DNA of 37,282 nucleotides from Candidatus Hodarchaeaceae archaeon (GTDB lineage: Archaea > Hadarchaeota > Hadarchaeia > Hadarchaeales > Hadarchaeaceae), in assembly GCA_030018135.1 (NCBI GenBank), contig JASEGJ010000010.1:1-37282 (forward strand). The letters run 5' to 3'. Within the stretch, counting starts at the first letter, position 1; the number at the start of each line of letters is the position of its first letter. The position numbers and the translations under genes are program-made. Positions 667 through 26,842 of this stretch are shown piece after piece. The notes under the pieces were generated by a model. That model saw only the letters and a list, made by a program, of their open reading frames with translations. It did no database searches and was not told the DNA's origin.

Positions 667-790
667 GGGGCAGGGGCACCTCGGTTATTCGACTGCGGCT
701 TTGACCGCGTGGGTTTGATTGAGGGCCCCAAGCGAAACACCATACTGCGGCCGAGACCGCGAATAGATGTCTGCAGTTATGCCCCAAATT
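667..790 (+). ncRNA. Putative IS110 bridge/seek RNA in the non-coding right end
   Basis: Two tandem modules of guide-GCGG..CCGC hairpin-guide. TTATTCGAC (685-693) is the reverse complement of the junction/flank GTCGAATAA (853-861); ATAGATGTC (763-771) is identical to the element end (847-855). Confidence 0.75.
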
Positions 791-854
791 TAAAGGGTGA
801 TGCGAAATAAAAAAGTGAAGCGCGGAACGAAAGCGAGGAACTTAACATAGATGT

Positions 855-1040
855 CGAATAAATCCATAGAATGGATAAAATTCTCATTTCATTTCCTCCG
901 TCGCGCAGTGCGCGCTAAGGTCCGCAGGTTGTGAGCTAAATGCCATGACCAGGATGCTACGGTTTTCGTTCGGATCCTTTTTACACTTTGTGTGTGAGCC
1001 ATAGCGGTTCGCCAAGCCGACGATCGAGGAAATTTTTGGC
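855..1040 (-). pseudogene. C-terminal remnant of a DDE (IS5/IS4-like) transposase and probable IS end
   Basis: Minus-strand frames read GLANRYGSHTKCKK...SILVMA / LAHNLRTLAR..., resembling the (H/Y)NL C-terminal motif of DDE transposases; stop at 889. Confidence 0.45.
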
Positions 1041-1071
1041 ACATGAAACGGAGTCCTGAGGAGGATCCGAA

Positions 1072-1518
1072 ATGCGTCTGGTCCCTTGGAGCAGGATCGC
1101 TTATTGGTTCTGCATCAAATGCGGTGAATGTTGTCGGAGATACAACCCCCCCCAGCCTAACATGGATCGAGGCTTTCCGGCTCACGGCCCGGTTCGGGCG
1201 GGAATCATCAAGAACGAGATAGCCCCGACATTCAGGTTTGGGGAGCAGGGATGTCCTACTTTAGCCGGAAAAATGTGCACCCTACAATTCGGATACGTGC
1301 AAAGGCTTGGTGCCGGGCAATCCGTTCGGTACCTTCATCGCCCGAGTTATCCCCGAATTCATAGGACTTGGATTGGGTTCGTGCAAATCCCAGCATTGGT
1401 CAAACTCGCTCCTACCGAACCCCCGAGAAACTTTTTTGCGATTGGGCCAGCATATCCATCGGCCGGCCATGAGAACGGACCCCAGATCGATCCGAAAAAA
1501 CGTGGCCAATTCGTTTAA
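1072..1518 (+). pseudogene. YkgJ/UPF0153 Cys-cluster protein, degraded
   Basis: MRLVPWSRIAYWFCIKCGECCRRY...GCPTL...MCTLQ matches CxxCGxCC...CP-L...C; similarity is lost downstream. Confidence 0.6.
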
Positions 1519-1643: not shown

Positions 1644-2384
1644 TCACCCAATATCCAAGTCTCTTCTTCTTTGCGTTGCTCGGTCCGCCGTCTGCGCTCG
1701 AACTCCCGCCGGAGCCGTCTGAACATTTCCTCGACTTCGCGCGCGCCGTTCGAGGGCGTCATATCGAACCTGATCCCTAAGATTCGGCGAGCACCTCGAG
1801 CACGTCTGAGTCGAGCGCGGATCGATGAGCGTCCCGTGGATCCGGCCTAGCAAGCATACGCCCCGCATGCCCACAATCGTCCGAGCGCGAGCATCAAACC
1901 CGAAGCGCCCACGATGGGTCCAACCTCAGTTCCCTGAACATCCCCGAAACCCCGCACTCGCGCAGAACTCCGGATCGCTGGCCGAAACGACCACCCGGGG
2001 TTTCGCTGATGGGTATTCGCCCGCGGCAAAACAGTGAAAAGCCGCTTCACCCCGAACCGTTCAGCCACGTCGAGGGTTTGGTTAATCACCTCGTAGTGCC
2101 CTTGAGGCGTGGTGACTTAGACATCGCCGGTCACGATAACGAATTCCTTTTCACCCGAACGTGCCGAATAAAATCCATCACAGAGTAAACGCGCAGAACA
2201 GTCGCGCTCCACAACCACTGGTGGGGGAAGTGAGGCGAGTGAAGCTCGAGAATCGTTCGGCCGAAAGCTCGGCGATCAGATGTTGGCCGCCAGCTTGCCG
2301 ATATAGCCGATACCTATGCATCCTTTCGATAAACGTGGGATGCTTCAGCTTTGGTGTAGACAAAAACTTTACCTCAGATCGCAT
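1644..2384 (-). pseudogene. PAC2-family proteasome assembly chaperone, multiply frameshifted
   Basis: Fragments in several frames: MRSEVKFLSTPKLKHPTFIE..HLIAELSAERF; INQTLDVAERFGVKRLFT; GPIVGASGLMLALGRL; GMRGVCLLG..HGTLIDPRS. Confidence 0.75.
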
Positions 2385-7989: not shown

Positions 7990-8750
7990 CACATTTCACC
8001 TCGAGTGTAACGGAAGAATAGGGGATCCGCTGTTGTATCTCGTAACTGGGGTCGAGAAGATACACAACGAATGGCGAAAGTTGAGCCCAGTTCTTGACGA
8101 CGATTCATTTGAGAGAACACTCTCGCGAGCCTTCCACCGGGACACCAGTTGATGTGGGACAAGTAGCCTCGATCAGAGCCCACTTGATCCACTGCCTCTT
8201 CCCTTCCTCGTGTGCTCAGCCGTTTGCTTCACCCTTGGGACGAGCCCGCGTAGTGGGCGAGCTTGTCAGGGCTCGGGAACCTCTTCACATCGCATATCTC
8301 GGCGTAAAGGGTCAAAGCCGTCAGGAAACCTTTCCCGGTATGCTCTGCACGACCCTGACTGCTTTCACCCCCTATCTCTTCTGGAGTTCGTGCTCTATTT
8401 GCTTCATCTGCCCTTCTACGAGAGCTAGGATTTTTACGTTCTGTGAGATATCGCAGATCCCCAAGTCCAAAGCCTCTTTTCTTCCTTTGATAGTTCCCGG
8501 GTGCCTCGAGCTCGATGCTCGATGCTCCTCTTCCTTAGCTCCGACCAAGTTCGGTTCCTCGGTGCCGTGGAGATCTTTCGTCTGAGAGCCCTATGTCTAA
8601 GCAGGTCCCTTAGCCAACGCATTTCCTTGTCGGGGACGTAGCAGGTGGGGAGCCAATCCATTCGCGTCAAATGGGCTAGCAGCTCGCTCTCGATCTTATC
8701 GGTTTTGGCATCCTAGCCCTCATCTTCACCTTGATGGGGTTAGCCAGAAG
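7990..8750 (-). pseudogene. Second IS110-family transposase remnant
   Basis: ANPIKVK..KTDKIESELLAHLTRMDWLPTCYVPDKEMRWLRDLLRHR and, downstream, WIKWALIEA; many frameshifts. Confidence 0.8.
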
Positions 8751-18029: not shown

Positions 18030-18213
18030 ACACCTATGTGAATCGCGAGGTTTTTTATTCATTTCGGTTTTCTCACTATCACCTCATCGGTTTTGGGCAT
18101 GATTGCATACACCTATCCGCGGTCTTTCGCCGCAATATAGTTTTTCGCTCGGGGCCCTCAATCAAACCCACGCGGTCAAAGCCGCAATTGAATTCCCGAG
18201 GTGCCCCTGCCCC
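18030..18213 (-). mobile_element. Transposase-less IS110 derivative (MITE-like) carrying a bridge-RNA copy
   Basis: Reverse complement aligns with 667-854; stems conserved, changes mostly in loops; terminus ATAGGTGT (18030-18037) matches its internal guide (18109-18116). Confidence 0.8.
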
Positions 18214-18255
18214 TTTTGTTTCTCCCTTTGATGGTTGTGGGAGCATGATATTCAC

Positions 18256-18285
18256 CCGCCTCTCATCGAATAGTTTGAGAGGCGG
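18256..18285. terminator. Perfect 10-bp hairpin downstream of int(C)
   Basis: CCGCCTCTCA-TCGAATAGTT-TGAGAGGCGG. Confidence 0.45.
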
Positions 18286-18331
18286 ATCCCTTAAAGCCGA
18301 GCGATTCATCATCCTATCAGCACCGTTAAAT

Positions 18332-19159
18332 TTACGAGAGAACTTTTAACCCCGCGCCATCGTATATCCTCTTTAACCGTTCGGGAGAGAAGTCCGTGTA
18401 ATGCCTCGCCAGCACGCTCCTCGGAACCCGCCCACAGAAGGCATCGACGTATCTGTCTGCAACGCCCAACTCGCCCATCTCGGAGCAGAACCAGTCGCGC
18501 AAAATCTGGGGCGTGATCTTAACGCCCGATGCCTCGCTCGCCCGCTTGAACCACCTATCAATTCGACTACTCCGCCACGGAAAGAGCCTTTGGTCGGCGC
18601 TCACGTCCCGCCCGTTGAGGTATTCTCTCAGCGCTTGCTCCGCTTCTCGGTTGAAAAATGACGCCCATCTTTTCTTTGTTATTGTGCTTGTTACGTTTGG
18701 CAGCACCATTCTCTTGTCAAGGTCGATGTCGCCTATCTTGAGCGATGCGACCTCATCTCGCCTAAGCCCCGATGTGGCGAGCATCAGGAACACCGCACGT
18801 TCAAATGGCCTTTTGAGCGCTTCGTAAAATCGCTTCAACTCTTCCTTGGTCGGCACCCTTTTCGGCTTGAACTCTTGGCGCGGTAATTTGAACGTCGCCA
18901 CTATTTCGCCTCTGCCCAAGAAGTCGCGGAAAAATCTTCTAAATGCTTTAAGAATGTTGGCGCGAGTCGAGGCGCTTGAATCCTTAAAGCCCGCGAGATA
19001 ATCTCTAATAACATCGGTCGAAACTTCAGCGCCGTTTAACCATCTCAAGAATCGTTTAATTTCACGACAATGATCTTGGGCGGTGGCCTCGGACAGCGAT
19101 AGGTCGATCGTGCAAAATTTCTTGAACTTCTCCAAAACATCAGGATCGAACGTTATGCC
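18332..19159 (-). CDS. int(C): SSV-type tyrosine recombinase, catalytic fragment
   Basis: TSGLRRDE, ITPQILRDWF, FCGRVPRSVLARHYTD; the reading frame runs out of attR. Confidence 0.92.
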   Translation of the reverse strand, partial: GITFDPDVLEKFKKFCTIDLSLSEATAQDHCREIKRFLRWLNGAEVSTDVIRDYLAGFKDSSASTRANILKAFRRFFRDFLGRGEIVATFKLPRQEFKPKRVPTKEELKRFYEALKRPFERAVFLMLATSGLRRDEVASLKIGDIDLDKRMVLPNVTSTITKKRWASFFNREAEQALREYLNGRDVSADQRLFPWRSSRIDRWFKRASEASGVKITPQILRDWFCSEMGELGVADRYVDAFCGRVPRSVLARHYTDFSPERLKRIYDGAGLKVLS

Positions 19160-19200
19160 TTTGGAGCCCGCGACGCCGGTTCGAATCCGGCCGGGGCTAC
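19157..19200 (+). repeat. attR: intron-less 3' half of tRNA-Gln(UUG)
   Basis: GCCTTTGGAGCCCGCGACGCCGGTTCGAATCCGGCCGGGGCTAC. Confidence 0.92.
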
Positions 19201-19267
19201 TAAATTTTAGGAAAAGTCGCATTTTTTTCGCCGCACGTAAGCTTAATATCGGCGATGCGCAAGTAAA

Positions 19268-23363: not shown

Positions 23364-23889
23364 CGGCAAGCGACCGCGCATCCACCCCACAGCATTTGTC
23401 CACCCCGCCGCAGTCGTCATCGGTGATGTCACCATAGGGGAATACTCCAGCGTCTGGCCTGGTGCGGTCGTCCGGGGGGATTTTGCAAGCGTTAAGGTGG
23501 GCCGCTACACCTGCGTGCAGGACAATACCGTCGTCCACGCAGCCGACATCTATGAGGGTAAAACGGAGAAGTACTTGCCGGTCAAGATCGGCGACTACGT
23601 CATCGTCGGTCATAACGCGCTACTGCACGGCTGTGCGATAGCGAATGACTGCATAGTTGGCGCTGGCTCGATTGTGTTCAACGGCGCCAGGGTCCGCGAG
23701 GGGGCGCTCGTAGGCATGGGGGCGGTTGTGCTGGCGGATGTTGAGGTGCCCCCGCGCACCATCGTCATCGGCATACCGGCAAGACCCCTTCGGAGGTTGA
23801 CCGATGAGGAGTTCGGCAGGATCCGCGCACAGGCAAAAAACTACGCCAAGCTGGCGAGGCTGTACAAATCGTCCGGCGTAGAAGGTTAG
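23344..23889 (+). CDS. Gamma-class carbonic anhydrase/hexapeptide-repeat protein
   Basis: PRIHPTAFVHP..VIGDVTIG..SVWPGAVVRGD, VQDNTVVH, VGHNALLHGC; GTG start. Confidence 0.9.
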   Translation: MLLQEFDGKRPRIHPTAFVHPAAVVIGDVTIGEYSSVWPGAVVRGDFASVKVGRYTCVQDNTVVHAADIYEGKTEKYLPVKIGDYVIVGHNALLHGCAIANDCIVGAGSIVFNGARVREGALVGMGAVVLADVEVPPRTIVIGIPARPLRRLTDEEFGRIRAQAKNYAKLARLYKSSGVEG

Positions 23890-26559: not shown

Positions 26560-26842
26560 TGTGCCACCAGCCCACGGTTGGGTTCGATCAATTATAAGTT
26601 TAGAGGGTAGGGTTTTCGGCAGTCATGTTAATGAAACAGTGGTCGGCGGGGGCTGGGGAATGCCTATATTTACCTATCGGTAAAGGGTTGTCCGAGGGGG
26701 AGCATAGATGTCGGCGCGAGGCTTCTCGGGCATAAAAATTTCAGCTTCGTGTGGAAGGTTCAAGCGGGATCGAGTAGCATCGCGCTTAAGACGAAGAGGC
26801 TATGGCCAAGAGATCCCCCGCGGGGCATAGGAGGGGTGGAAA

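Follow-up and report, generated by a model that had tools for sequence, protein, structure and literature searches.

The element at the start of the contig

We analysed the first 37,282 bases of contig C1 (JASEGJ010000010.1; hereafter the window) from a Candidatus Hodarchaeaceae archaeon of the Hadarchaeota, whose 1.1-Mb genome is assembled in 45 contigs and is 93% complete. Positions 3-853 hold the right-hand two thirds of an IS110-family element (copy 1), comprising a truncated transposase gene, a predicted bridge RNA or seekRNA gene, a subterminal inverted repeat and the right tip. A preliminary description of this DNA had proposed an archaeal IS110 bridge RNA with guides readable from the element's own junction, next to a broken transposase copy. 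The RNA proposal is supported by four guide strands that fit the surrounding DNA across copies, with corrections to the core dinucleotide and one guide.

The transposase pseudogene (3-664, +) retains the C-terminal ~218 codons of an IS1111-type DEDD transposase of the IS110 family, the contig start cutting the gene. Its coding sequence is spread over three reading frames, namely frame 3 (3-317), frame 1 (316-435) and frame 2 (419-664), and blastx comparison with intact relatives returns three segments (3-317, 316-435 and 419-658) that are 66-80% identical to residues 128-345 of the protein of one relative (L023). In the window an in-frame TAA (428-430) takes the place of the residue two codons ahead of the conserved SG, such that the AGLVPSVHQSG of a relative reads AGLVPSVY-stop-SG in the window, and the N-terminal part of the catalytic set lies off the contig. 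The three frames and the in-frame stop confirm that this copy is broken.

Membership in the IS110 family was judged by the presence of both the PF01548 and PF02371 domains or by a match to NCBIfam NF033542 ('IS110 family RNA-guided transposase'), and the window pieces hit these models in order. The window gene scores 44.4 bits with Transposase_20 (PF02371), over the cut-off and with one TAA inside the match, and 24-26 bits with DEDD_Tnp_IS110 (PF01548), which is under the cut-off because the N-terminus is missing; both pieces match NF033542 at consecutive profile positions (58 + 46 bits). At least nine relatives have open transposase frames of 311-340 amino acids (aa) counted from the first methionine. 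The intact relative L022 (328 aa) has both Pfam domains (88.8 and 91.2 bits), scores 265.5 bits with NF033542 against a cut-off of 140, and aligns to IS621 (PDB 8wt6; HMMER, E = 5.5e-14) with D, E, D..D and SG in register, its segments YVGLD, MEAS, KTDKTD and QSG standing at the IS621 catalytic positions. Wherever the gene upstream of an RNA copy is readable, it is an IS110-family transposase gene.

Predicted guide RNA, element ends and landing site

The predicted RNA gene (664-791, +; ~125 nucleotides) begins at the transposase stop codon, and, haloarchaea excepted, every relative whose upstream transposase is readable likewise has its RNA 3' of the gene. Its structure is an outer stem around two modules, in each of which a stem is followed by an internal loop and a hairpin cap (UGCGG/CCGCG). 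Loop 1 comprises TTATTCGAC (685-693) as its 5' strand, the hairpin TGCGG/CCGCG (694-709) and TGGGTTTGA (710-718) as its 3' strand; loop 2 comprises ACACCATAC (737-745), a second TGCGG/CCGCG hairpin (746-761) and AATAGATGTC (762-771). Direct reading finds these two parallel modules, and the junction ATAGATGTCGAATAA at 847-861, exactly as the preliminary description gave them. The fold energy is -53.7 kcal/mol (z = -3.1), a value as good being reached in 0 of 200 shuffles, and an Rfam scan of positions 1-1500 returned four matches, all far under their gathering scores and none over 664-791.

A covariance model (R1), constructed from nine copies with a hand-checked structure, scores the window RNA at 130.9 bits. 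R1 has five matches in the window's own genome, where further RNA copies lie at window 18088-18216 (-), C42:48808, C36:211 (on a 590-base contig) and C20:8596, and 36 matches in Hadarchaeota, distributed over 16 of 66 genomes; the RNA is also found at two Methanomassiliicoccales loci. An exact pattern scan over one genome per prokaryote species gave five loci, four of them true, in two Candidatus Hadarchaeum/Hadarchaeota records and two Methanomassiliicoccales/Methanomassiliicoccus records; two of the named records are identical to loci of the 66-genome set, one of them belonging to the same family as the window and so assigning it to Hadarchaeota. A GC-rich Myxococcota locus (L014) was rejected as a chance match in which the second module is absent. 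Among 34 distinct copies in a model-fitted alignment, bases pair in 84% of cells, compared with 41-51% in slid controls; both partners have changed in 22 of 30 pairs, and none of 500 shuffles reached these values.

Two variants of RNA arrangement were seen among the relatives. In the Methanomassiliicoccales elements L013 and L015, the RNA starts before the transposase frame has ended, and the stop codon falls inside the loop of the first hairpin. In L026 (G042:C3) a partial R1 match to module 1 only (371-464, 19.8 bits) lies ~1.1 kb upstream of the full element's RNA, inside the element's left region, and could represent a nested or tandem insertion.

Alignment columns were used to extract the four loop strands of each copy, which were then compared with its surrounding DNA. 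In copy 1 the right target guide (loop 1, 5' strand) is complementary to the right flank G-TCGAATAA (853-861), and the left target guide (loop 1, 3' strand) contains TGGGTT, identical to the left target, with the core TG at 716-717. The left donor guide (loop 2, 3' strand) contains ATAGATG (763-769), which is repeated as the right tip at 847-853, where ATAGA is followed by the core TG; in the guide, the core TG falls at 768-769. Only CCAT (740-743) of the right donor guide (loop 2, 5' strand) pairs, with the left tip ATGG. The right subterminal inverted repeat, GCGAGGAACTTAACAT (833-848, +), has a reverse complement that matches ATGTTAAGTTTCTCGC, the left end of a solo remnant on contig C40, at 15 of 16 positions.

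Recurrence of the guide strings was quantified in the window and then across copies. ATAGATGTC occurs four times in the window (763, 847, 23545 on the minus strand, and 26704) against an expectation of 0.07, and TTATTCGAC twice (685 on the plus strand and 853-861 on the minus strand) against an expectation of 0.37; since two occurrences are reached in 6 of 100 shuffles, the complement match of TTATTCGAC is suggestive within the window alone, and it is made solid by the comparison of copies. The 7-mer of the loop 2 3' strand recurs 24-83 bases downstream of the RNA, directly after a conserved ...CAC/AAC; of 30 copies, 22 show an exact match at the right end and four a match with one mismatch, while in four it was not found, and the exact cases include 10 different 7-mers. 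In several degenerate relatives the model scores are low and a right end was not found. The right target guide agrees with its own flank at 7/7 positions in eight copies and at 6/7 in two, of 22 usable copies, and the perfect cases span six unrelated target sequences; cross pairings of a guide with another copy's flank reach at least 6/7 in only 3 of 452.

For the left side, nine full-length elements were available. The left target guide agrees with the element's own left flank at 5, 4, 5, 6, 5, 6, 5, 4 and 3 of 6 informative positions (mean 4.8), compared with a mean of 1.47 and at most 4 for cross pairings. In L022, L024 and L038 the junctions are fitted by all four guides. A subterminal-repeat search placed no left end in L025, L026, L027, L038 or the degenerate copies; the left ends of L025 and L038 were placed by guide match, and those of L026 and L027 are unplaced and stand outside the count. 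Guides and flanks thus covary across copies, as the preliminary description had expected of a genuine guide RNA.

The right donor guide is short. Pairing of loop 2's 5' strand is confined to the four bases that open the element (CCAT to ATGG), the left tips of relatives reading ATGG(C/T/G)ATG, and two compensatory changes were observed: CTAT with left tip ATAG in copy 2, the transposase-less copy at window 18031-18319, and CCAA with left tip TTGG in L029. A pairing of the loop 2 ACAC with the left end through a 2-base bulge was considered and rejected, as it fits only C40 and not L022, L023, L024, L028 or L038. A short right donor guide is also described for IS621, in which 7 bp of left donor and 2 bp of right donor were varied (Durrant et al. 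2024, PMC11208160).

The core dinucleotide emerges from comparison of the two loops. Position 7 of the 3' strand is the only variable base that is equal in loops 1 and 2, and it is so in 27 of 29 copies (T/T in 15, A/A in 9, G/G in 2 and C/C in 1), while position 8 is always G. The same NG dinucleotide flanks both ends in 9/9 full-length elements, as in L024, which reads CGGCTT-TG-ATGACATG ... ATAGG-TG-TTCTGAA. Because this position is common to both loops in 27/29 copies, we place the core of copy 1 at the TG of 852-853, one base leftward of the GT core first proposed.

The left junction of copy 1 lies off the contig, and the C40 remnant serves in its place. At C40:11442 the sequence runs ...CCAACCGGGTTTG up to the junction and ATGGCATGTTAAGTTTCTCGC... 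after it, followed by ~45 transposase codons and then by unrelated DNA, and its left flank CGGGTTTG equals the left target guide of the window at 8 of 9 bases. Together with the junctions of relatives, which likewise fit, this bears out the expectation that the left junction would be related to the guides. The left junction had been forecast as GGGTTT-GT-ATGGTGTT; the left target half and ATGG held, and the GT core and the TGTT extension did not, C40 actually reading GGGTT-TG-ATGGCATGTT. The forecast left end ATGGTGT is absent in L012, L015 and L016, and in L013 only an unrelated TATGGCG was found, inside the gene; the right donor guide was corrected to its short form on this ground. With C40's left end after the core in GGGTT-TG-ATGGCATG, the donor is ATAGA-TG-ATGGCATG in place of the proposed ATAGAT-GT-ATGGTGT. 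The proposed target GGGTTTGTCGAATAA, a string unchanged by the shift of core, is matched by the uninterrupted CGGGTTTGTCGAATAA at G000:C18:5725 at 15 of 16 bases. We predict that the left junction of copy 1 itself will read (T/C)GGGTT-TG-ATGGCATGTTAAG, within the other half of the tip described below, and that it will be related to TGGGTTTG.

The target is the tip of another insertion sequence. Flank comparison shows that the right target half TCGAATAA (854-861, +) and the DNA beyond it belong to the terminal inverted repeat and to the decayed body of a DDE-type insertion sequence into whose tip copy 1 inserted (854-1190, the end being approximate and taken from a minus-strand open reading frame, or ORF, at 889-1185). 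From its first base, the flank starting at 855 has matches in six other genomes of the family and on contig C33 of the same genome. In those genomes the uninterrupted tip reads GAGTTTGTCGAATAAAT, preceded by unrelated DNA, and in L057, L058 and L059 the tip motif occurs as an inverted pair 1019-1033 bp apart, with the DNA between the tips encoding a Pfam DDE_Tnp_1 transposase (54 bits). The window's copy of this DDE element is decayed (ORF 889-1185, minus strand). Copy 1 is thus inserted within a terminal inverted repeat belonging to a DDE insertion sequence of ~1.03 kb.

Further sequences bearing guide or tip strings were also seen. L037 (G039:C42) is a 96-bit RNA copy without a right tip; 29 bases past its RNA, ATAAATCCAGATTAAAACA resembles the interior of the DDE tip, which suggests a deletion across the junction. 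In L012/L022 (G027:C20) two full-length elements lie head to tail, separated by the tandem duplication GGACACCGAAAGA GGACACCGAAAGA, and the right target guide of the first and the left target guide of the second both read into the duplication. The two remaining ATAGATGTC sites in the window, at 23545-23553 (-) and 26704-26712 (+), were rejected as copies, there being no insertion-sequence end, RNA match or subterminal repeat around them; they probably arose by chance, although both share the longer string CATAGATGTCGGC, a 13-base identity.

Transposase-less and haloarchaeal copies

Copy 2 (18031-18319, -) is a miniature element without a transposase, consisting of a left end, an RNA and a right end in the 287 bases between two TG cores. 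The RNA (18088-18216, -) is 86% identical to 667-788 by blast and scores 125.9 bits with R1. Some 100 bases of the left end, ATAGGATGATGAATCGC..., are homologous to that of C40. The right end, ...CACATAGGTG (...CACATAGG-TG), aligns with copy 1, and the donor guides fit both ends. No other of the 31 copies has a left end within 300 bases of its RNA.

The miniature element starts 13 bases past the stop of a tyrosine recombinase gene (18332-19222, -), which matches Phage_integrase and also the archaeal Phage_integr_3. The 5' end of this gene (~19150-19200) overlaps, on the other strand, an apparent tRNA 3' half with a T-arm and acceptor-like sequence, suggesting integration of a kind of element whose integrase gene is split in the process.

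In a plasmid collection, the closest matches to an intact transposase are haloarchaeal genes annotated only as 'IS110 family transposase', which are 40-44% identical over 98% of the protein and come from Halanaeroarchaeum, Halorubrum and Natrinema plasmids. These elements have the RNA family, the right tip and the guide logic in common with the relatives described above, but differ in that the RNA lies upstream of the gene, in 3/3 loci (R1 scores of 39.8, 20.6 and 13.7 bits), and a long non-coding stretch free of the RNA lies 3' of it; the right tip, ATAGGTG, stands ~180-200 bases past the gene, and the guides fit both junctions. An IS5-family transposase gene lies 15 bases away from the end of the Halanaeroarchaeum element. 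Since the RNA is 5' of the gene in haloarchaea and 3' in Hadarchaeota and Methanomassiliicoccales, the RNA gene has changed sides among related elements, and on the circular form such a change would amount to the crossover point moving across the RNA gene. It is possible, although we lean slightly against it, that, with guide logic, right tip (ATAG..G) and subterminal repeats staying the same in other respects, the 'IS1111-type' and 'IS110-type' layouts are interconvertible states and not deep lineages, and that transposase-less mini-elements moved in trans could lend target specificities. If so, the mini-elements of this clade, which keep a complete RNA with its own target loop, could retarget resident transposases.

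Interpretation, known relatives and surrounding sequences

We consider it very probable that the RNA at 664-791 is the guide RNA of a dead IS1111-type RNA-guided element and that it encodes the element's own ends and its landing site, as in bacterial relatives. On this reading the loop 1 3' strand (TGGGTT-TG) has the sequence of the top strand on the left of the crossover and so would pair with the bottom strand; on the right, the partner of the loop 1 5' strand (TTATTCGA-C) would be the top strand itself, G-TCGAATAA. The programmed target of copy 1 would be TGGGTT-TG-TCGAATAA, the tip of the DDE element's terminal inverted repeat. Loop 2 would read the donor, formed by the joined ends of an excised circle, with ATAGA-TG corresponding to the right tip and CCAT pairing with the left tip ATGG. 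The core NG (here TG), common to target and donor, would then flank both ends of the inserted element. By analogy with IS621, ISEc11 and others, the transposase would bind the RNA, the element would pass through a circular intermediate and strands would be exchanged at the core.

Other explanations were weighed against this one. The RNA stands directly after a stop codon and overlaps the end of the reading frame in Methanomassiliicoccales, an arrangement that would suit a terminator, an attenuator or an mRNA-stabilising 3' element whose junction matches arose by chance, and within the window alone the 9-mer complement match is indeed weakly significant. We regard this as highly implausible, however, because four strands covary with four DNA segments across copies of differing ends and targets, because the RNA is retained in a mini-element that has no gene to regulate, and because it is found upstream of the gene in haloarchaeal relatives. 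We likewise give very little credence to the idea that the RNA serves the tyrosine recombinase beside copy 2 as a new RNA-guided integrase system: its appeal lies in the 13 bases separating copy 2 from the stop of the Phage_integrase family gene, but copy 2, in common with the full elements, has a left end, a right end and subterminal repeats of its own as boundaries, and the arrangement next to an integrase is seen in 1 of 31 copies, the readable upstream genes all being IS110-family transposases. A further alternative, that of a relic family whose RNA and ends are kept by recent descent only with no active member left, is improbable, if less so than the other two. The copies in the window's genome are all broken or partial and several relatives are degenerate, as this alternative would have it, but the relatives with open frames of 311-340 aa number at least nine, one has intact catalytic positions, their guides fit both flanks perfectly or nearly so, and the differing guide/target pairs between copies imply repeated retargeting.

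We caution that several observations weigh against the interpretation of copy 1 as an RNA-guided element. Its left junction lies off the contig start, so that evidence for the left side comes from the C40 remnant and from relatives; no other contig of the genome ends in its missing 5' half. With its gene broken, copy 1 cannot move by itself, no full-length transposase gene is assembled in the 93%-complete genome, and all copies there are broken, partial or cut by contig ends, although intact ones may exist where the assembly broke, as at the start of C1 and at the 590-base contig C36. Target guides misfit flanks in L021 (2/7), L028 (3/7), and L039 and L033 (2/7); counted from the hairpin, the right target guide sits one base further along in some copies than in others, and the core of L022a looks one base short. 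The alignment used for the pair counts was fitted to R1 itself, and copies within one genus are not independent. The target guides of copy 2 also misfit its flanks (5/7 right, 2/7 left), a misfit of the same kind as that of L021; a loop 1 fitting its site would read ...GGTGC-TG and TG-TTAACTTAA, and copy 2 was either placed by another RNA in trans or its guides drifted later.

Within the IS110 family, the architecture points to the IS1111 group, for which we looked for a long non-coding region with the RNA downstream of the transposase gene, inverted repeats of 7-17 bp that are subterminal, a few bases inside the tips, and a protein of ~330-350 aa with GL-P----S(t)G. Published studies place the RNA of IS1111-group elements in the right end together with long subterminal repeats (Durrant 2024, PMC11208160), give their transposases as 330-350 aa with the motif GL-P----S(t)G, and describe a seekRNA top-strand match lying 5' of the bottom-strand match (Siddiquee 2024, PMC11187229). 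The window RNA has the same strand order, and the subterminal repeats of relatives match at 12-16 of 18 positions, for example ATGACGAATTCTTCG with CGAAGAATTCACAT. We assign the element to the IS1111 group because of its RNA 3' of the gene, long subterminal repeats, protein size and motif, and strand order, and the preliminary reading is thereby corrected as to group: the sequence indicates an IS1111-type architecture, in which the RNA is also called a seekRNA.

The nearest described counterparts are the IS1111 elements ISEc11, ISPa11 and ISKpn4 (PMC11187229), which likewise have the RNA downstream of the gene, long subterminal repeats and transposases of ~325-345 aa with GL-P----SG, whereas the hosts here are archaeal (Hadarchaeota and Methanomassiliicoccales) and the RNA matches nothing in Rfam. 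The bridge RNAs of IS621 and the IS110 group (PMC11208160) have the same two internal loops for target and donor; in each loop the left guide pairs with the bottom strand and the right guide with the top strand around a common core dinucleotide, the right donor guide is short and the DEDD recombinase has a conserved SG. In IS621, by contrast, the RNA is encoded upstream of the gene, within the left end, and the subterminal repeats measure only 2-3 bp; protein similarity to it is low at the E value given above. ISPpu9/Ssr9 of Pseudomonas putida (PMC12288879) also combines an RNA gene downstream of the transposase with extra transposase-less RNA copies, but it is bacterial and targets REP sequences. 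In archaea, 662 IS110-family recombinases have been counted in 2,835 genomes (10.1101/2024.06.21.599552), and ISHvo10 of Haloferax is a diverged IS1111 relative (Siddiquee 2024, PMC11187229). A full-text search returned no paper on Hadarchaeota and IS110, supplementary tables, which possibly list archaeal bridge RNA predictions, being outside its scope. An IS1111-type element reportedly takes another transposable element's inverted-repeat tip as its specific target; the element described here resembles it in this respect, its target being the tip of a 1.03-kb archaeal DDE insertion sequence.

The known mechanism is unchanged by these findings, its logic being already established for bacterial relatives; judged from sequence, the particulars here are the NG core, another insertion sequence's tip as target, a transposase-less RNA copy and a change in RNA position. 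IS110-family RNA-guided recombinases are under development as genome-writing tools, and to our knowledge the experimentally studied examples are all bacterial. The present material adds an archaeal RNA family with a covariance model, an NG core and ~30 natural sets of guide, target and donor, together with intact ~330 aa transposases from Hadarchaeota, Methanomassiliicoccales and culturable haloarchaea that could be used for tests in archaea and at other temperatures or salt concentrations. It also offers a clear case of an RNA gene switching sides within one clade, and an insertion sequence that lands specifically in the tip of another in small archaeal genomes.

Elsewhere in the window, no R1 match lies downstream of a second degenerate IS110-family transposase fragment at 8140-8712 (-), which scores 19 bits with PF01548 and 26.4 bits with PF02371 and contains TGA stops. 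The first 2-3 kb of the window resemble a pile of decayed insertion-sequence fragments, and at ~2150-2185 (+) the sequence CCGAATAAAATCCATCAC is similar to the DDE insertion sequence tip TCGAATAAATCCA.

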